A stretch of DNA of 20,494 nt, from NCBI GenBank assembly GCA_043818055.1, contig JBDRGF010000139.1, positions 1 through 20,494 of the forward strand. Reading direction: 5' to 3'. Below are positions 6,022-13,240 of the stretch, one piece after another. The first letter of the stretch is position 1. Every line of letters begins with the position of its first letter. This DNA comes from Pseudomonadota bacterium (lineage in GTDB: Bacteria > UBA10199 > 2-02-FULL-44-16 > JBDRGF01). The notes below the pieces were generated by a model. It was given only the letters and a program-made list of their open reading frames with translations. It made no database searches and was not told the origin of the DNA. Made by a program: the position numbers and the translations under genes.

Positions 6022-6082
6022 AGTCGCTGGTGACTGGTCGCTAGTCGCTGGTAGATCCGCTAGAGACTAGCGACTAGCGACC
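6022..6082. repeat. Inverted heptamer-repeat hairpin (AGTCGCT / TAGCGAC units)
   Basis: GGTCGCTAGTCGCTGGT (6036-6052) matches the reverse complement of ACTAGCGACTAGCGACC (6066-6082) at 16/17. Confidence 0.8.
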
Positions 6083-6087
6083 GATTT

Positions 6088-6522
6088 TTAATTCTTTGGA
6101 AATGCCTTTCCCTCTTCCTGTGCAGCTGAGGGCAGCGAGTTGTGCCATTGAACTATCCGCCATTTGCTATTTAAATTCTCAAGCACGCATGTCACCCTGC
6201 CGGGAATATTCAAACTCTTTCCATCAACCTTTGCAACAACTACAAAGTCAGCAGCCACCCACGAGACCTTTTCGAAAACCGAGACCGATATCCACTGCCA
6301 TTCCCATTTGAGCTCCTCGGATTGTTCAAAGTCGCGCTGCAGCTGTTTTCGAATTTCATTAGGGCCAATACGCTTCTCATCCGAACCGGTGCCTAAGAAT
6401 ACTATATCATGCTCCGGCGCAAAGAGCCCCATGATACCATCGATGTCCTTGTACATGTAATACTGATTAAACTGGTTTAAAACCTCCATCACAGCTGATT
6501 CAGTCTTAGTGTCGGCTTTCAT
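6088..6522 (-). CDS. SnoaL-like / NTF2 family protein
   Basis: DIDGIMGLFA, IVFLGT...RIG, GRVTCVL...WRIVQWHNS pattern; SD AAGGAG upstream. Confidence 0.85.
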   Translation of the reverse strand: MKADTKTESAVMEVLNQFNQYYMYKDIDGIMGLFAPEHDIVFLGTGSDEKRIGPNEIRKQLQRDFEQSEELKWEWQWISVSVFEKVSWVAADFVVVAKVDGKSLNIPGRVTCVLENLNSKWRIVQWHNSLPSAAQEEGKAFPKN

Positions 6523-6703
6523 AAAACACTCCTTTTTTATAAGGCTTTTGTTAACAACTTTTTACAGTAAGAATCAATATTAATCTAGTGCTTCGTCAAT
6601 TTAATTTTCACCAGTGGAGATATGATAATATTAAATTGTTTCGAGAGCTTGTGCCCTTCCTGACTATAAATAATTTAATAGATGAGGTGCTAGCTTAAAA
6701 AAC

Positions 6704-6733
6704 TTGATTATCTCTCTCCATCATATATAGAAT
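6704..6733 (+). promoter_or_regulatory. Putative sigma70 promoter upstream of the tRNA-Ser array
   Basis: TTGATT (6704-6709), 18-bp spacer, TAGAAT (6728-6733), just before the first tRNA fragment at 6747. Confidence 0.45.
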
Positions 6734-6746
6734 CCCTTGCTTTATC

Positions 6747-6791
6747 GGAAGGATGCCGGAGTGGTTGCGGGTCCCCGAAGGGGAAAAACCG
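6747..6791 (+). pseudogene. tRNA-Ser 5' fragment A with hairpin at the anticodon region
   Basis: GGAAGGATGCCGGAGTGGTTG, then TCCCCGAAGGGGA, then AAAACCG; homologous to the 5' half of 7405-7495. Confidence 0.7.
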
Positions 6792-6820
6792 TGAGAGCTA
6801 TTTGAAAATTTGTTGCAATC

Positions 6821-6962
6821 GGAGAGGTGCCGGAGTGGTTGCACCACGGGCATAGAAAGCTGTAACGACTAGCGACGATTAAAACCGCCGCCAGCATAAC
6901 ATCTTTCTAAACGGCTGCGGTCTCGTCAGCCAGAGGCTGATCCGCCTTAGGCGGAAAAACCG
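6821..6962 (+). pseudogene. tRNA-Ser 5' fragment B with insertions in the D loop and anticodon loop
   Basis: First 21 nt are identical to the intact tRNA. A ~68-nt insert (6842-6909) follows, then GCGGTCTCG, two 15-nt palindromes (6926-6955) and AAAACCG. Confidence 0.8.
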
Positions 6963-6993
6963 TGAGAGCTATTTGACAATTGAGCAATCGGGT

Positions 6994-7111
6994 GGAGGGA
7001 TGCCGGAGCGGTTGAACGGGGCGGTCTCGAAAACCGCTGTCCCGCTTTGCGGGACCCAGGGTTCGCCCTGTCATACGACAGGGCGCCCTGTTGAATAACA
7101 GGGCGAATCCC
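6994..7111 (+). pseudogene. tRNA-Ser(CGA) copy C with a 40-nt double-hairpin insertion in the T loop, lacking the 3' acceptor strand
   Basis: Complete D, anticodon (CGA) and variable arms; GGGTTCG, insert 7066-7105, AATCCC; no acceptor 3' strand or CCA follows. Confidence 0.88.
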
Positions 7112-7122
7112 GGACAAATTAT

Positions 7123-7389
7123 ATGTACTACGTTTATATATTACACTTAGCGAACAACCAATTATACACAGGTTTTACGAGCGATTTAAAAAGAAGGATT
7201 AAAGAGCACGAAGGGGGAAAAGTTGAATCAACGAAACATAAAAGACCGTTAAAGCTGCTTCACTACGAAGCTTATCTCCTGGAGAGCGATGCGCGAAGAA
7301 GAGAAAAATATTTGAAAGGAAGTGAAGGTAAAAATTCATTGAGAAAACAGATTCGGGATATTTTGTTGAGCTTAAATAAAGAACTTTGA
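7123..7389 (+). CDS. Small stand-alone GIY-YIG nuclease family protein
   Basis: YYVYIL...LYTGFT...RRIKEH...ARRREKYLK, 88 aa. Confidence 0.92.
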   Translation: MYYVYILHLANNQLYTGFTSDLKRRIKEHEGGKVESTKHKRPLKLLHYEAYLLESDARRREKYLKGSEGKNSLRKQIRDILLSLNKEL

Positions 7390-7404
7390 CATTTCATTTC
7401 AATC

Positions 7405-7495
7405 GGAGAGGTGCCGGAGTGGTTGAACGGGGCGGTCTCGAAAACCGTTGTCCACTTTTAGTGGACCCAGGGTTCGAATCCCTGCCTCTCCGCCA
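7405..7495 (+). tRNA. tRNA-Ser (anticodon CGA), intact, CCA encoded
   Basis: Acceptor GGAGAGG/CCTCTCC plus GCCA; anticodon loop CT-CGA-AA; long variable arm GTCCACT-TTT-AGTGGAC; T arm CAGGG-TTCGAAT-CCCTG. Confidence 0.97.
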
Positions 7496-7533
7496 AAATA
7501 AATTTTCCCATGAAATGGGGAGATTTGTTTTGG
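7493..7533 (+). other. Long hairpin immediately after the tRNA (terminator or processing structure)
   Basis: CCAAAATAAATTTTCCCAT-GAA-ATGGGGAGATTTGTTTTGG forms a 19-bp stem with G-U pairs. Confidence 0.6.
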
Positions 7534-7550
7534 AGAATCGGCAGGGATGA

Positions 7551-7757
7551 AATCATCCTTCGAAGAAGGCTGATGTGGAACTGAGCGGCAACATCAACCT
7601 GTTTGTTCCCGGTGACAAGAGGGTCTTAGACGATATGCAAACAGTAGATGGTATTAAAATTGTCAACAACATCCAGCTCTATCTCGATCTTTACAAATAT
7701 CCGGCGCGTGGACGAGAGCAGGCAGAACACTTAAGGGAGCAGGTGATTCAGACATGA
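7551..7757 (+). pseudogene. C-terminal fragment of a type IV toxin-antitoxin AbiEi-like antitoxin/regulator
   Basis: GNINLFVP...IVNNIQLYLDL...RGREQAEHL matches my recollection of the AbiEi_2-type C-terminus. An in-frame stop at 7548-7550 removes the N-terminus. Confidence 0.6.
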
Positions 7758-8929
7758 AGAAAAAAACCGGCAAAAAACCTGTTAAAGCGAGCTCCTCTGC
7801 AGATGGCTTATTTAAGCGGATTGTCACTATTTTAGAACAGGCCAGGGCCAATGTTGTCCGGTCAGTCAACAGCAATATGGTAACGGCCTATTGGCTTATT
7901 GGCCAAGAAATTGTTCAGGAGCTTCAAAAAGGACAGGAACGGGCGGAGTATGGTGAACGGATCATTAGCAATTTATCTGATCGTCTGAATAGACGGTATG
8001 GCAAGGGTTTTTCGACCACCAATCTTTGGTACTTTAGACAATTTTACATAACCTTCAAGAATCGAAAGCCTGAAATTCTCCACCCAGTGGGTGGAGAATC
8101 TGAAACCCATAAAAAACTCCGCCCAATGGGTGGAGTTTCGCTTACAGGATTTCACCCTAACCTTTCTTGGACGCACTATCGTGCGCTGATGCGTGTTGAA
8201 AATACATCCGCCCGAAATTTTTATGAAGAAGAAGCGGTACGCTGTGGTTGGGACAAAAGAACTCTGGAACGACAGATTTCGACTCTTTTTTATGAACGAT
8301 TACTGAAAAGCCAAGACAAAAAGGGAATGCTTAAAGAAGTGGTCTCCAAAAATGACTCCCTCCAACCTATTGATGTACTGAAAAACCCCTATATCCTCGA
8401 ATTTCTCAATCTGCCAAATGATCCGAAACTGCGTGAATCAAAATTAGAGGAAGCCCTCATCGCAAACTTAAGACAGTTCCTTTTGGAATTGGGAAAAGGT
8501 TTTTCGTTTGTTGCCCGACAAAAACATATCCGCATTGGCAGCAAAGATTTTTTCGTGGACTTGGTTTTCTACAATTATCTCCTCAAATGCTTTGTGCTGA
8601 TTGATCTTAAGGTTGGCGATCTGACTCATCAAGACATTGGACAAATGGACGGTTACGTTCGGCTCTTCGAGGAGCAATGCAAAACTCCCGAAGACAATCC
8701 AACTATCGGGCTTATTCTCTGTTCCGACAAAGACGATGCGATTGCGCATTATTCTGTTTTAAAGGAAAGCCGGAAGTTATTTGCCTCACGATATAAACTG
8801 GTTTTACCCGATGAGGAAGAGTTGCGCAAAGAGATCGAAAGAGAACGCCGGCTCATTGAGAACGCCTTTGAGCCTGTTACGAAAAAATCTCTTTCTTCGG
8901 GCAAAGTTGGGAGAAAAAAGAAAAAGTAA
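7754..8929 (+). CDS. DUF1016/YhcG family PD-(D/E)XK nuclease-domain protein
   Basis: YWLIGQEIV, RAEYG, GKGFS..NL, LSWTHY, KNPYILEFL, FLLELGKGFSFVARQ, VDLVFYN, LIDLK, GQMDGYV, PTIGLILC. Confidence 0.93.
   Translation: MKKKTGKKPVKASSSADGLFKRIVTILEQARANVVRSVNSNMVTAYWLIGQEIVQELQKGQERAEYGERIISNLSDRLNRRYGKGFSTTNLWYFRQFYITFKNRKPEILHPVGGESETHKKLRPMGGVSLTGFHPNLSWTHYRALMRVENTSARNFYEEEAVRCGWDKRTLERQISTLFYERLLKSQDKKGMLKEVVSKNDSLQPIDVLKNPYILEFLNLPNDPKLRESKLEEALIANLRQFLLELGKGFSFVARQKHIRIGSKDFFVDLVFYNYLLKCFVLIDLKVGDLTHQDIGQMDGYVRLFEEQCKTPEDNPTIGLILCSDKDDAIAHYSVLKESRKLFASRYKLVLPDEEELRKEIERERRLIENAFEPVTKKSLSSGKVGRKKKK
8075..8138. repeat. Two in-frame 25-bp palindromes (39-bp period) inside the DUF1016 gene
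   Basis: ATTCTCCACCCA-G-TGGGTGGAGAAT (8075-8099, perfect arms) and AAACTCCGCCCA-A-TGGGTGGAGTTT (8114-8138, 11/12). Confidence 0.9.
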
Positions 8930-8955
8930 ATTTGCCAGCTCGGATCTGGCGAATT
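8929..8955. repeat. Solo DUF1016-type palindrome just after the stop codon
   Basis: AATTTGCCAG-CTCGGAT-CTGGCGAATT (arms 9/10); translates as ICQLGSGEL from 8930. Confidence 0.6.
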
Positions 8956-9028
8956 GTGGAGGGGGTTGGGAAGTTGTTAAGAAAGATGGGGGTAAATGAG
9001 CACTGATTCGACTCTTATAATCTTGACG

Positions 9029-9088
9029 CTCTACGGCTTGACCAAAGAAGAAATTGAAATTGTGGAAGGGAGGACTCAAGGTGACTGA
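9029..9088 (+). pseudogene. Extreme C-terminal remnant of a type IIG (Eco57I/TaqI-like) restriction-modification enzyme
   Basis: Translates LYGLTKEEIEIVEGRTQGD*, the typical LYGLTxEEIxIVEG terminus. Confidence 0.7.
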
Positions 9089-9971
9089 CAGACTTAATCC
9101 ACATTCCAGACCACATTTCTTCAAGTACGTTACTTATGATGGCGCCATCAACATCTTGCGGAATATTGCTATCAAGTGGAGTTCTCCTCTCACTTTCAAT
9201 GATCCCTTTGATATTCTCGTCAGGCCAAATATCGGATTCACTGAAGAGGAATTTAAAAAGCATTCCGAACAACGAATCTTAGACGAAATTAATTCAGAAA
9301 ATACGCCTACCCACAACGAAGAACTTATTACAAAAATAAGATCGGCTTCTTCACATTTTACCGAAGGAGATTTGAAAAGCATGTTAAAGCCACGAATTGA
9401 CACACTAACAGAACAGGCGTTTTTGATATTTGCAGAATATCAGAAACAATGGCTTGAATTTGCTAAAAACATTCGCGTTCTTTGTCTTTCCGAAGTTCAT
9501 GACAACTTGCTTATGTGGGCACATTATGCCAAAAATCATACAGGGGCGGTCATACAACTCAAATGCTTGCCGGACTCAGATACTGCTCCAACCAGCAGGG
9601 CTATTAGGGTCGAATATCAGGACGCATTTCCTTCCGTAGCCACGCCAGAGGAATGGACCAACGAAATATTGAATATTAAAACGCTCAATCGCAATGAGGT
9701 TTTCTTAAGATTCATGGCTACAAAAAGCACGCATTGGGCGTATGAGAAAGAATGGCGCTGCCTCGATCAAAAGAGACCAACCGACAATGGCGATCATGAA
9801 ATTTGTGCAATACATCCCGAGGAAATCGAAGCTGTTTACCTTGGTTGTCGAATGCCAGAAGAAAGTAAGCAAGTCATTAGGGGTTTGTTGCAAGGCAAAC
9901 TGAGTCACGTCAAAATTTATGAGGCGAAACAGCATTCAGAACGTTATCAATTAGTATTTGACCCGTTGTAG
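9081..9971 (+). CDS. DUF2971 domain-containing protein
   Basis: FFKY, SSPLTFNDPFD, CLSE..DNLLMWAHYA.NHTG, KS..WAYEKEWR. GTG at 9081 preferred because GGAGG lies at 9069-9073. Confidence 0.85.
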   Translation: MTDRLNPHSRPHFFKYVTYDGAINILRNIAIKWSSPLTFNDPFDILVRPNIGFTEEEFKKHSEQRILDEINSENTPTHNEELITKIRSASSHFTEGDLKSMLKPRIDTLTEQAFLIFAEYQKQWLEFAKNIRVLCLSEVHDNLLMWAHYAKNHTGAVIQLKCLPDSDTAPTSRAIRVEYQDAFPSVATPEEWTNEILNIKTLNRNEVFLRFMATKSTHWAYEKEWRCLDQKRPTDNGDHEICAIHPEEIEAVYLGCRMPEESKQVIRGLLQGKLSHVKIYEAKQHSERYQLVFDPL

Positions 9972-10023
9972 GTCAGTCGCTGAGTGGACAAGTTATTTTT
10001 GTTGTATAATTAGGAGGATAAAT

Positions 10024-10734
10024 ATGGGAGACATAATAAATACAAATACTTTTGAAATCAGATATAAGCCAAACCCAAAAGCACTCGATTATCGGGGCGC
10101 ATGGGCTGAAGTAATATCTGAGCACCTCCAGTTACCACGCTGGCGAATATTGGAAAATCGGTTGGATGTTTATAATGAACAGACGGGTGAGCGAGCTTTT
10201 GTTGGTTTTAGAAACGCAGGCTACGTCGTTCACAATTCTCAAACCGACAATTATTTCGCAGATAAAATCATCAAATTTGTGAAATTTCTAGTGACACTAA
10301 ATGGTTTTGAAAAAGAGCCTTTTATAGAGAGAATAGGCGTCCGTTCTATATATTGTAAAAAGTACAAGGAGTCTTTTGAAAAACTCAAAAACCTGTATCT
10401 TGAACGTTACATGAATTTAACTGATGCTGCCAAAAAACTATTGGATGCGACCATTTTGGACATAGGTGGTCATGTGAACTTTGCCGACAAGCATGGCAAT
10501 TTCAACACAATGAGTGGGCCTATGGAGCAAAAGCAAATGAACCAGTTTTTTGATCAAGAATATATAGGCGATTTGCCCGATATTGGATTGTTTTTTGATA
10601 TTGACTATTGGCTCACTCCAAAAAAACAAATGGGGCCCGGCGATATATCAAGTCATATCAATGATTTTTCGGAGGCTGCTAGAGAACGATTCGAGCAGAT
10701 GGCTTCTCATATTATGGAAGTTAAAAATGGCTAA
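10024..10734 (+). CDS. Hypothetical protein, TIGR04255-like
   Basis: SD AGGAGG before ATG 10024; FEIRY, IERIGVRSI and LFFDIDY resemble TIGR04255 family motifs. Confidence 0.55.
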   Translation: MGDIINTNTFEIRYKPNPKALDYRGAWAEVISEHLQLPRWRILENRLDVYNEQTGERAFVGFRNAGYVVHNSQTDNYFADKIIKFVKFLVTLNGFEKEPFIERIGVRSIYCKKYKESFEKLKNLYLERYMNLTDAAKKLLDATILDIGGHVNFADKHGNFNTMSGPMEQKQMNQFFDQEYIGDLPDIGLFFDIDYWLTPKKQMGPGDISSHINDFSEAARERFEQMASHIMEVKNG

Positions 10735-11179
10735 AAAAAGGAAGAAACAAAAAAACGTAGTACCAATAAAGAGTGCTTTTCGCGAGGAAACAAGTAGTAA
10801 CCCCGCTGTTCATCCTAATGCAACCCTTGCTCCGGGTGATGCTCTTCATTCCACCGCAGATAATAGCTGGCTTTCAACTGATTCAACTAACGCACCTATA
10901 CTCGGTGAGGAAGATCAAAATGAAAACACCTATGTTGAAAGCTATGCTGGACTTTTGGATAAACATATCTTGAGCAAGGGTGAATCGGTTTTATTTTTTA
11001 TTGCGATTGCCGTTATCGGGTATGTCTTTATCCAGGATAATGGTGCCGGTGCATTAAAAGATTGGAGTGGGCTTTTCTGGACTCTCAAAAAAGTGGGCGT
11101 AATTTTTGCCTGTTTTGTTGGGGCTCAGATTTTACAGAAGATTTATAAGTCCTGCGTTTCAAAGTGGAAAGCAAAATAG
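10727..11179 (+). CDS. Hypothetical protein with disordered N-terminus and two C-terminal TM helices
   Basis: ATG 10727 overlaps the upstream stop; hydrophobic segments VLFFIAIAVIGYVFI and VGVIFACFVGAQIL. Confidence 0.7.
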   Translation: MAKKRKKQKNVVPIKSAFREETSSNPAVHPNATLAPGDALHSTADNSWLSTDSTNAPILGEEDQNENTYVESYAGLLDKHILSKGESVLFFIAIAVIGYVFIQDNGAGALKDWSGLFWTLKKVGVIFACFVGAQILQKIYKSCVSKWKAK

Positions 11180-11204
11180 AGACAGTAACGTTATAAACCA
11201 AGGC

Positions 11205-11229
11205 AACTTCCGAGGATACCTCGGTAGTT
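11205..11229. repeat. Solo RhuM-type 25-bp palindrome
   Basis: AACTTCCGAG-GATAC-CTCGGTAGTT (arms 9/10); translates as ATSEDTSVVRK from 11203. Confidence 0.65.
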
Positions 11230-11297
11230 CGTAAGAGCTGGCTGGAAAAAATTAACCCCTGAGAATTGCACAGCTTATTCAAAACTTAGGAATAAAT

Positions 11298-11675
11298 ATG
11301 CTCCTCCACCTTCAATGCACAAAAAAGGTTCTTAAAATCGTCGGTGAGACCAAGGATGGGCCAGTCCCACTCAAGCCAACATTGCTTTCATGGCATGTAA
11401 ACGAGTTTCGAGTTGCCAGGCGAAAATTGTTGCTCTTTACCCATGACCTAACTTTTTATTCCGTATTCTGGTATCCCGCAACCAAACCGCATATCATGAA
11501 CATGAAAAATGTGTTGGCTTCCGAGCTTATGGATTCACTGATGGCCGCTGGTTTCACAGCAGATCAGGTCGAAGAATATTTCACTGGTTTTGACCATGCC
11601 ATTTTCACTCCAACCAGTTCACGGCAGGTTTTGGGTGTAAGGAGCTCCTCTATTTTCCATCTTCTATTCTCCTAA
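11298..11675 (+). pseudogene. DUF6933-like protein, probably truncated at about 11640
   Basis: LQCTKKVL, WHVN.F.V.RRKLLLFTHD.T.Y, TSSRQVLG, after which the frame runs into a low-complexity repeat arm. Confidence 0.6.
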
Positions 11676-11746
11676 TTTCTGAAGTTTCATGCCGTATTAT
11701 GGGCAAAAAGTCGGGAAAATAGAAAATGGAGAATTGAAAATAGAGG
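11647..11746. repeat. Inverted heptamer-repeat element (CTATTTT / AAAATAG units)
   Basis: Left arm CCT-CTATTTT-CCATCTT-CTATTCT; right arm AAAATAG-AAAATGG-AGAATTG-AAAATAG-AGG; outer 11 bp perfectly complementary. Confidence 0.8.
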
Positions 11747-11844
11747 CAAAGAAAATTTGTTAAGCTGCGAGTTTGGGAATGAAAATGAGGCCTTGTGTTT
11801 CCAAAATCTTGGTTCTATACACAGCGTCCACGATGGCCTGCTAA

Positions 11845-12041
11845 AAGAGAAAATATTGGTACGTGACGAGGAAAGATGGGGGAAAAATAACTTTGCCTGT
11901 GTTCAATGTGGTATGCGCCCACCTAGTGTTGAATTACATATAGACCACATAAAGCCTTGGAGCAAAGGTGGAAAAACAGAAATGAAAAATCTACAAACGC
12001 TTTGCTCAAAATGCAATATTGGCAAAAGTGATTTAGAATAG
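11845..12041 (+). pseudogene. HNH endonuclease domain, probably a 5'-truncated fragment (start approximate)
   Basis: CVQCG...LHIDHIKPWSKGG.T...NLQTLCSKCN.GKS; no convincing start codon or RBS. Confidence 0.75.
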
Positions 12042-12050
12042 CTGTTAAAA

Positions 12051-12104
12051 TTAGAGAGAAAATCAGTTGTCGAGAAATTCTCGGTAACTGCCAGCAACGC
12101 CAAA
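12051..12104 (+). repeat. Solo RhuM-type palindrome with flanking RhuM-like codons
   Basis: AGTTGTCGAG-AAATT-CTCGGTAACT (12065-12089, arms 8/10); translates LERKSVVEKFSVTASNAK. Confidence 0.7.
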
Positions 12105-12220
12105 CAATTTGGAAAGCTGCATAAACCCATTTTCTGTTGCTTTTTAGAACGTTAGAGCTAACAACATCGTAGATTATTATTTGCCGTGGTTAATGAACGA
12201 CAAAATTGAGGCACAAAATT

Positions 12221-13240
12221 ATGAAAAAGTTACCTGACAATCAAATTGCTTTTTATCAATCACCCGATGGTTCGGTGAATATTGAGGTTTTGTTTGCCGA
12301 GGAAAATATCTGGCTTTCTCAAAAAAAAATGGCGGAACTTTTTGACACAACACCTCAAAACATAACCCAGCATCTCAAAAATATCTATACAAATAGCGAG
12401 GTTAATCAAATGTCAACTTGTAAGGAATTCTTACAAGTTCAAACAGAAGGGGAAAGAGAAGTCAAAAGAAACACGTCTCTTTATTCGTTGGAGGCCATTA
12501 TTGCTGTTGGCTATAGGGTCAACTCCGAGAGAGGCGCTCAATTTCGGCAATGGGCAACGGAAATTCTTAAAAATTATATCCATAAAGGCTATGCGTTGGA
12601 CATCAACAGATTCAAATACGGTTCACGCTTCAGCGCCAGGTATTTTGACGAACTTTACGAAGAGATCAAAGACATCCGCTCCAGCGAGCGTATGCTCTAT
12701 CAAAAAATCACCGATATTTATGCCACAGCCATAGACTATTCACCCAAGACGTACGAGAGTAAACAATTTTTTGCGACAGTTCAAAACAAACTTCATTTTG
12801 CCATTACTGGGAAAACAGCTGCGGAAATTATTCAAGAACGCGTGAGTAGTAAAAAAGATAAAATGGGACTCACATCATGGAGAAGATCGCCGAACGGTAA
12901 AATTATGCCCAGTGATGTAGTTATTGCCAAGAACTATTTGGATAAAAATGAACTTACTGAACTCAATAGAATCGTGAACATGTATTTGGATTATGCCGAA
13001 ATGCAAGCTGCTCGCGGCAGGATAATGGCCATGAAAGACTGGATAGAAAAACTCAATGCCTTTTTGAAATTTAGTGAACACGATATTTTGACAAATGCAG
13101 GCAAGATCAATCATGAAGTAGCAGAAACACTTGCATTAGGAGAATATGGAAAATATCGGGTAATACAGGACAAAAACTATGTTTCCGACTTTGACCGCGA
13201 GGTGAAAAAATTATTTACATCTGCAAAGAAAAAAGAATGA
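12221..13240 (+). CDS. Virulence RhuM family protein (putative DNA-binding)
   Basis: IWLSQKKMAELF, NITQHLKNIY, YSLEAIIAVGYRVNS, QFRQWAT, DIRSSER, FFATVQNKLHFA, MGLTSW, AKNYL. Contains the in-frame palindrome at 12415-12439. Confidence 0.93.
   Translation: MKKLPDNQIAFYQSPDGSVNIEVLFAEENIWLSQKKMAELFDTTPQNITQHLKNIYTNSEVNQMSTCKEFLQVQTEGEREVKRNTSLYSLEAIIAVGYRVNSERGAQFRQWATEILKNYIHKGYALDINRFKYGSRFSARYFDELYEEIKDIRSSERMLYQKITDIYATAIDYSPKTYESKQFFATVQNKLHFAITGKTAAEIIQERVSSKKDKMGLTSWRRSPNGKIMPSDVVIAKNYLDKNELTELNRIVNMYLDYAEMQAARGRIMAMKDWIEKLNAFLKFSEHDILTNAGKINHEVAETLALGEYGKYRVIQDKNYVSDFDREVKKLFTSAKKKE

Follow-up and report, generated by a model that had tools for sequence, protein, structure and literature searches.

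The serine tRNA array described here contains what is probably a selfish cassette of about 400 bp, in which a minimal GIY-YIG nuclease would nick DNA near its own double hairpin and host recombination would place the cassette in a tRNA gene. We assign this reading a probability of roughly 0.6, and consider it highly likely that the array holds a mobile nuclease-hairpin cassette of some mechanism. The array lies in a 20,494-nucleotide stretch of DNA from a Pseudomonadota bacterium, and this whole stretch is referred to as the window. The broken tRNA copies that precede the working tRNA gene in this array are plugged by DNA hairpins and are not merely cut off.

The array ends in an intact tRNA-Ser(CGA) gene (7405..7495, + strand), which was found by both ARAGORN and Rfam and is the sole intact tRNA of the window; none of the other tRNAs in the assembly, 45 in all, is a Ser(CGA) gene. 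At the gathering threshold, the Rfam scan of the window returned nothing beyond this gene. Three 5' pieces of tRNA-Ser lie upstream on the same strand, and their starts agree with the start of the tRNA as the initial annotation had proposed, at 17/20 positions for copy A (6747), 20/20 for copy B (6821) and 17/20 for copy C (6994; 62/72 over 6994-7065). Copy A (6747..6792, + strand) is collapsed, with a single hairpin at the anticodon loop (6774-6783) and then the 3' strand of the anticodon stem. Copy B (6821..6963, + strand) consists of the first 21 nt of the tRNA, a 67-nt insert in the D arm (6842-6908), a D-stem/anticodon piece, a type-2 double hairpin that plugs the anticodon loop (6926..6955, no strand), and the 3' strand of the anticodon stem. 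Copy C (6994..7111, + strand) carries 72 nt of a different tRNA-Ser(CGA) allele up to the CG of the T loop (7065), followed by two 20-nt hairpins and by 6 more tRNA nucleotides that close the T stem. The two hairpins form a strand-symmetric type-1 double hairpin of 40 nt with a CG at each junction, which plugs the T loop (7066..7105, no strand). This region folds as DNA with z scores of -4.6 and -5.4 on the two strands; copy A and the insert of copy B folded no better than their shuffles. The nuclease gene (7123..7389, + strand) is the only open reading frame of at least 60 aa in 6747-7495, and the spacing noted earlier was reproduced: its ATG lies 12 nt beyond 7111, where the tRNA sequence of copy C ends, and its stop is followed by the intact tRNA after 15 nt. 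The exit of copy A (6784..6820, + strand) reads KNRESYLK in one frame, likely the remnant of a deleted GIY-YIG gene, and continues into a spacer; the exit of copy B (6956..6993, + strand) reads KNRESYLT, a weaker likeness, and has 24 nt in common with the exit of A (6782-6805 and 6953-6976 are identical). Positions 6801-6820, just before copy B, match 7385-7404, the nuclease stop and the spacer before the intact tRNA, at 15/20.

A possible weak sigma-70 promoter for the tRNA locus (6704..6733, + strand) had been suggested. Its position 13 nt before copy A is plausible, but it has only 9/12 consensus bases, and a scan of the window found 2 promoter-like sites where 2.5 were expected by chance. 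Just before this promoter region lies an AT-rich, MITE-like repeat of about 110 nt (6584-6693), of which some 15 near-full copies occur elsewhere in the genome, and further upstream an inverted repeat of 7-nt units (6029-6082) sits between a SPOR-domain gene and a SnoaL-like gene. On the other side, a terminator-like 34-nt inverted repeat (7478-7548) has the 3' end of the tRNA as its left arm, and similar hairpins stand behind other tRNA-Ser genes of the genome. Behind the tRNA, the region 7575-13240 carries a YhcG/DUF1016 nuclease gene, with two palindromic 24-nt repeats inside it (8073-8135), together with DUF2971, DUF6933, HNH and RhuM-family genes.

The array is not an artefact of assembly, which is ruled out for the A-B and C-gene junctions by matching public contigs. 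Contigs with 0 differences cross A-B in four studies (X1, 6489-6924; X2, 6663-6936; X3, 6625-6819; X4, 6767-6922) and run from copy C into the gene in two (X1, 7050-7294; X6, 7100-7314). One matching run may be the source sample. Among the matches listed, no piece bridges the B-C or the gene-tRNA junction, and runs X7-X12 share few or no words with the window. Public reads and contigs contained no empty allele and no excised or circular form of this strain; the joints found in the search for an empty allele were tRNAs of other organisms.

The 88-aa product of the nuclease gene matches the Pfam GIY-YIG family over residues 1-71 (E 5e-15, 56 bits against a cut-off of 22.6), and Pfam found no DNA-binding domain beyond this 71-residue match; NCBIfam gave only a weak match to TIGR01453. 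Residues Y5, Y15, G17, R25, H29 and E61 are invariant across 80 sequences. We take these tyrosine, tyrosine-glycine, arginine, histidine and glutamate positions to be the catalytic residues of the GIY-YIG family, and judged by the alignment the expected catalytic positions are intact. The predicted structure (pLDDT 95.5) is one domain with short terminal helices, and its fold matches come in the order UPF0213 protein 1zg2, then HIGLE and Slx1, ahead of I-TevI and UvrC. The match to 1zg2 (E 5e-5) is the only one with an E-value below 0.001, and 1zg2 is also the best match by sequence (E 6e-8). By both domain match and modelled fold, the protein is thus assigned to the Slx1-like branch of the GIY-YIG superfamily. 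Slx1 enzymes cut branched DNA.

We collected homologous loci from the best 80 of 121 genome matches and the best 80 of 329 metagenome matches, and reduced them to 145 at 90% protein identity; metagenome loci were fetched with close-clade patterns, so that this clade is oversampled by design. It comprised 74 loci, of which 17 with short flanks were dropped and 57 were counted. Among these best matches, an intact tRNA on the same strand lies within 150 nt of the gene at 53/57 loci (41 downstream, 14 upstream, 0 on the opposite strand), and a type-1 hairpin is present at 51/57. We counted 104 type-1 motifs in 24,484 proximal bases and none in 38,912 distal bases. At distant loci with full flanks (n = 63, after 8 were dropped), a tRNA was found at 30 and a type-1 hairpin at 5; these 63 include three clade members (L133, L157 and L161), which fall inside the clade on the tree and in the doublet, junction and partial-copy counts. 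If the broken copies belong to the element, then tRNA fragments should be enriched beside its homologues, and this is what we observe: partial copies, defined as an exact 12-mer outside intact genes, accompany 38/56 clade loci, against 11/27 distant loci and 9/45 tRNAs of this genome. In a quick maximum-likelihood tree (82 columns, 79 of 142 forks open), the window protein falls inside a clade of 78 rows with an SH-aLRT of 99. Type-1 hairpins accompany 71/78 rows of this clade and 2/67 rows outside it, and type-2 hairpins, the kind found in copy B, cluster on another branch (10/14 rows). One hairpin family is paired with one protein clade. The 69 labelled clade rows cover 22 tRNA isotypes, with at least 33 isotype changes on the tree, where shuffled labels gave a mean of 51.5 and a minimum of 47; target isotypes are therefore inherited for a while, and switched often. 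In three relatives of the same class (L196, L197 and L190), as read by eye, a GIY-YIG gene of a more distant branch, with hairpins, lies between the end of an smpB-like gene and the start of an apparent tmRNA.

The anatomy of the plug is uniform across the clade. All 34 strict type-1 doublets (33 of 77 loci) are 40 nt long, with the loops TCATnCGA and then TCGnATGA and a CG at each junction, and they read the same on both strands; GTTCG forms the left junction of 26/34. An apparent signal in the orientation of the doublets was dropped because a doublet is its own reverse complement. Of 29 doublets with a partner tRNA, 24 sit in the T loop, 4 in the anticodon loop and 1 elsewhere, and the fragment matches the neighbouring tRNA better than any other isotype in 25/29. 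At 11 of the 23 loci with longer fragments, the fragment is identical to the neighbouring tRNA, so that local duplication fits these cases as well as import. The hairpin stems covary: in doublets picked by loop and CG spacing alone, with no stem criterion, 308 of 310 stem cells are Watson-Crick, each of the two stems occurs in 13 distinct versions, and most positions show several pair types. Column shuffles, a control that ignores relatedness, reached at most 224 Watson-Crick cells of 310. Perfect stems would also be expected from a fold-back copying mechanism. The unit occurs in two mirror layouts, either as plugged 5' copy, gene and intact tRNA, as here, or as intact tRNA, gene and plugged 3' copy, and this layout recurs at many tRNA isotypes. 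The tRNA remainder that faces the gene measures 4-7 nt in 25/26 upstream cases; in 10 downstream cases it comes to 0-5 exact nt, and 9-53 nt lie between the plug and the start of the gene. On the far side, identity ends 0-5 nt from the 5' end of the tRNA in 7 of 9 full-length exact copies and reaches at least 27 nt into the flank in the other 2, a count from which the mapped junction of L174 is excluded. The symmetry of the layouts would follow if either strand could be cut within a few bases of the hairpin and homology were confined to the tRNA.

These observations bear on a comparison with SegB, a GIY-YIG homing nuclease of phages. A nuclease of this kind would act on a chromosome without the cassette, cutting its intact tRNA gene in the T or anticodon loop; repair would copy the cassette in, and the plug would do no more than protect one copy. 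The plug does split the T-loop motif that SegB is described as recognising (PMC2330249), and tandem units at loci L006 and L007 recall the tandem amplification of tRNA and segB reported for that enzyme (PMC13096335). Against this, the protein is without a DNA-binding domain beyond its nuclease match and its fold is nearer to Slx1 than to I-TevI, an intact and unprotected tRNA stands beside the gene at the same 53/57 loci, and the sequence of the hairpin loops tracks the protein clade, which would be needless for a mere blocker. We therefore consider SegB-like homing unlikely, and favour nicking near the cassette's own hairpin.

The initial annotation had pictured an element that repeatedly copies the resident tRNA, with A and B as collapsed older units. 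The first part is not supported as stated. Copy C differs from the resident tRNA at 10 of 72 positions and copy B carries a hairpin of another family, one associated with another branch of GIY-YIG nucleases. Six of the 10 differences form three compensatory pairs in the variable arm, one further difference turns a G-T pair into G-C, and copy C scores 56 and 55 against the tRNA-Ser(CGA) genes of loci L101 and L084 but 52 against its own neighbour. By this pattern of substitutions, copy C derives from a different working tRNA-Ser(CGA) allele and not from a decayed resident gene. The second part of the picture gains from the exits of A and B. The exit of A, KNRESYLK, resembles the nuclease helix RRREKYLK and scores 17.0 bits on the family PSSM, a value attained by 2/60,000 random genome windows and 0/20,000 shuffles in a post hoc test whose first three codons overlap tRNA-derived bases. 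The exit of B, KNRESYLT, scores 7.3 bits, attained by 74/60,000 windows. A and B thus likely keep a nuclease remnant of six codons, which supports their reading as older, collapsed units. The insert of copy B resembles a motif before tRNA-Ser in the relative locus L086 (E 0.007). There (G002:C37), tandem 143-nt repeats stand ahead of tRNA-Ser(CGA), and each contains the remains of a GIY-YIG C-terminus, along with a hairpin and a motif that resembles the 67-nt insert; decayed nuclease pieces were read by eye at both L085 and L086. Given the foreign allele in C, the other-branch hairpin in B and the nuclease remnants, the array looks as though several cassettes had arrived one after another, and not like a set of guides.

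The distribution of the cassette is patchy, with an empty site in a congener. At the tRNA-Ser(CGA) loci of relatives, an upstream partial copy was found at 0/15, and 1/15 has a distant GIY-YIG gene within 600 nt. Of 93 genomes of the class, 20 have a nuclease match at E 1e-20 or better, and by our own reading the clade gene occurs with a type-1 doublet only in G007, G064 and this genome. G007 carries a plugged tRNA-Gln(CTG), the nuclease gene and an intact tRNA. Its congener G004 gave no nuclease match and, with matching flanks on either side, has a single tRNA-Gln(CTG); this is one comparison, in which the two tRNA-Gln genes themselves differ. The search for an empty site matching G064 gave no clear orthologous pair. 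Together with the tRNA link of the homologues and their partial copies, the empty orthologous site supports the earlier proposal of a tRNA-targeting nuclease element that has no integrase. Among the named hosts of the clade are Cloacimonadota, Lentisphaerota and several Patescibacteria. The search for a phage or plasmid vector found no close relative: viral contigs held no relative by clade alignment, 0 doublets and two 24-residue matches, the phage set no close relative (best 43%), and the plasmid set no close relative of the nuclease.

Within this genome, plugged 5' copies without a gene occur in the upstream 250 nt of tRNA-Glu(CTC) (C68) and tRNA-Gln(CTG) (C79), and these are scars of the same kind. 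Both hairpin types are also found inside other repeat loops of the genome; type-2 hairpins plug larger palindromic repeats at C49:7386, C63:2883, C73:7648 and 11304, and C122:12652, which are REP-like. In addition, six tRNA genes (C2, C9, C22, C33, C149 and C162) are followed after about 130-190 nt by a copy of their own 3' end. Four of these repeats clearly share a motif, and those at tRNA-Met and tRNA-His are in tandem; they are a different tRNA-linked repeat from the plugged cassette.

The gene-less copies and the hairpins in other loops would suit a second explanation, in which what moves is the hairpin pair, as a 40-nt MITE mobilised in trans, the host duplicates tRNAs as a rescue, and the nuclease gene is carried along and stays close to its substrate. 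Against this, the gene starts at the distance from the plug given above, and the tRNA ends 4-7 nt past the plug in 25/26 upstream cases; gene, plug and duplication were gained together in G007 relative to G004, and a nuclease-like remnant persists in A and B. We regard hairpin-only mobility as quite improbable.

That the fragments act as decoys or guides had also been raised, in the form of a host-kept nuclease-RNA module whose co-transcribed fragments serve the nuclease or oppose tRNA-cutting enemies. All parts are co-oriented behind one possible promoter, covarying stems suit RNA as well as DNA, and pieces of A-B occur in the RNA-library run X4. This run, however, covers 26/30 bins of the window at similar low depth, and such thin coverage of the whole window points to no specific transcript. 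Across loci the fragments range from about 10 to 75 nt, break in different loops and often carry extra plugs, and the locus is absent at 15/15 orthologous tRNAs of relatives. SsnA, a small GIY-YIG nuclease compared below, is described as inactive on RNA (PMC11893778). Since fragment length and break point vary and the conserved part is a strand-symmetric hairpin that may precede or follow the gene, little speaks for decoys or guides, and we judge the RNA module very improbable. Ordinary att-site debris of integrase-driven islands beside a chance nuclease gene is a largely refuted reading and much the least probable, for despite island-type cargo behind the tRNA (YhcG/DUF1016, DUF2971, HNH, RhuM), what lies upstream of the tRNA are 5' pieces, each of them hairpin-plugged, the unit has no integrase (none of the family among the 19 window proteins scanned, two further ORFs lying outside the scan), and the layout recurs with the protein clade at 22 isotypes.

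We therefore return to the nuclease-hairpin cassette and the route by which it would move. In single-stranded or extruded DNA, the double hairpin and the short tRNA stem left beside it would form a branched structure. The Slx1-like enzyme would bind this structure and, since the plug has the same sequence on both strands, nick either of them at a distance of a few bases from the hairpin. The tRNA sequence flanking the gene would then serve as homology arms with the same-isotype tRNA gene of a recipient, and the product would be a plugged copy, the nuclease gene and a working tRNA, so that one functional tRNA is kept. Because the nuclease gene adjoins the intact tRNA, the cut site is not readable from the layout alone. 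The 40-nt plug by itself may enter other DNA loops, and the landing of a lone plug would explain the switches to new isotypes. Later arrivals would stack ahead of the working tRNA while older units lose their gene; A and B would be such relics, and C with its gene the latest arrival.

Several known systems resemble the cassette. In the Ssn system, a lone GIY-YIG domain cuts single-stranded DNA beside a cognate hairpin (Chenal et al. 2025, PMC11893778). SsnA with its NTS/SRM repeats (cd10448) is, like the protein described here, a single-domain GIY-YIG nuclease of about 90 aa encoded next to a cognate DNA hairpin, further copies of which are dispersed in the genome; a mobile origin is proposed by the authors, who draw a comparison with REP/IS200, and the main text contains 0 occurrences of 'tRNA' (PMC11893778). 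The hairpin here differs in being an inverted doublet in a tRNA loop, accompanied by a partial tRNA duplication, and the SRM motif was found within 300 nt at 0/77 clade loci and nowhere in window positions 6600-7700. SegB of phages T4 and T6 is likewise encoded among tRNA genes, with a T-loop motif, any isotype as target and tandem tRNA-nuclease repeats, but is described as a free-standing phage cutter of double-stranded DNA with a C-terminal NUMOD3 binding part (PMC2330249, PMC13096335). Here we find the tRNA adjacency with neither a C-terminal DNA-binding module nor phage encoding; instead, a bare Slx1-like domain encoded on bacterial chromosomes is accompanied by a hairpin of its own and by a tRNA copy that is plugged. 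By analogy, the cassette may work like Ssn/NTS and SegB, yet it would belong to neither, in the case of Ssn through the missing SRM motif. Stand-alone Slx1-like/UPF0213 proteins (PDB 1zg2, 1ywl) are alike in sequence and fold, and the accessible text of PMC1564403 describes no link of theirs to tRNA genes or hairpin repeats. A unit with no recombinase gene also sets the cassette apart from integrase-driven tRNA islands, and the pairing of recombinase and displaced tRNA end is not found here. REP/REPIN-RAYT and IS200/IS605 elements combine inverted pairs of short hairpins, dispersed copies and one gene for a cognate single-strand enzyme, without terminal inverted repeats. The cassette shares the inverted hairpin pairs, the dispersed copies, the single cognate enzyme gene and the lack of terminal inverted repeats, but their enzyme is an HUH (Y1) tyrosine transposase that joins DNA itself, where the cassette has a GIY-YIG nuclease and carries a tRNA repair copy. 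We found no description of such a cassette in the full-text literature, a search that left most subscription papers outside, and the minimal nuclease-hairpin element is apparently undescribed so far.

Tentatively, and at less than even odds, the cassette may represent a new class of mobile element without transposase, integrase or reverse transcriptase, in which an 88-aa GIY-YIG enzyme would recognise a clade-specific branched single-stranded DNA signal, mobilise a 40-nt doublet into DNA loops, and spread its gene across phyla through tRNA homology arms, swapping tRNA alleles on the way. If the cassette is what we propose, it would give a job to the abundant tiny 'hypothetical' GIY-YIG genes of uncultured bacteria, and would account for the tRNA relics with hairpin plugs and for the short palindromic repeats that such genomes contain. 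It would mean that an element of about 400 bp spreads without a joining enzyme of its own, and would carry the Ssn idea of a small nuclease with a cognate hairpin over to another clade, one that has a defined candidate substrate. Such enzymes could be compact sequence- and structure-specific nucleases for single-stranded DNA, and the foreign allele in copy C hints at a route by which tRNA genes are exchanged between species.
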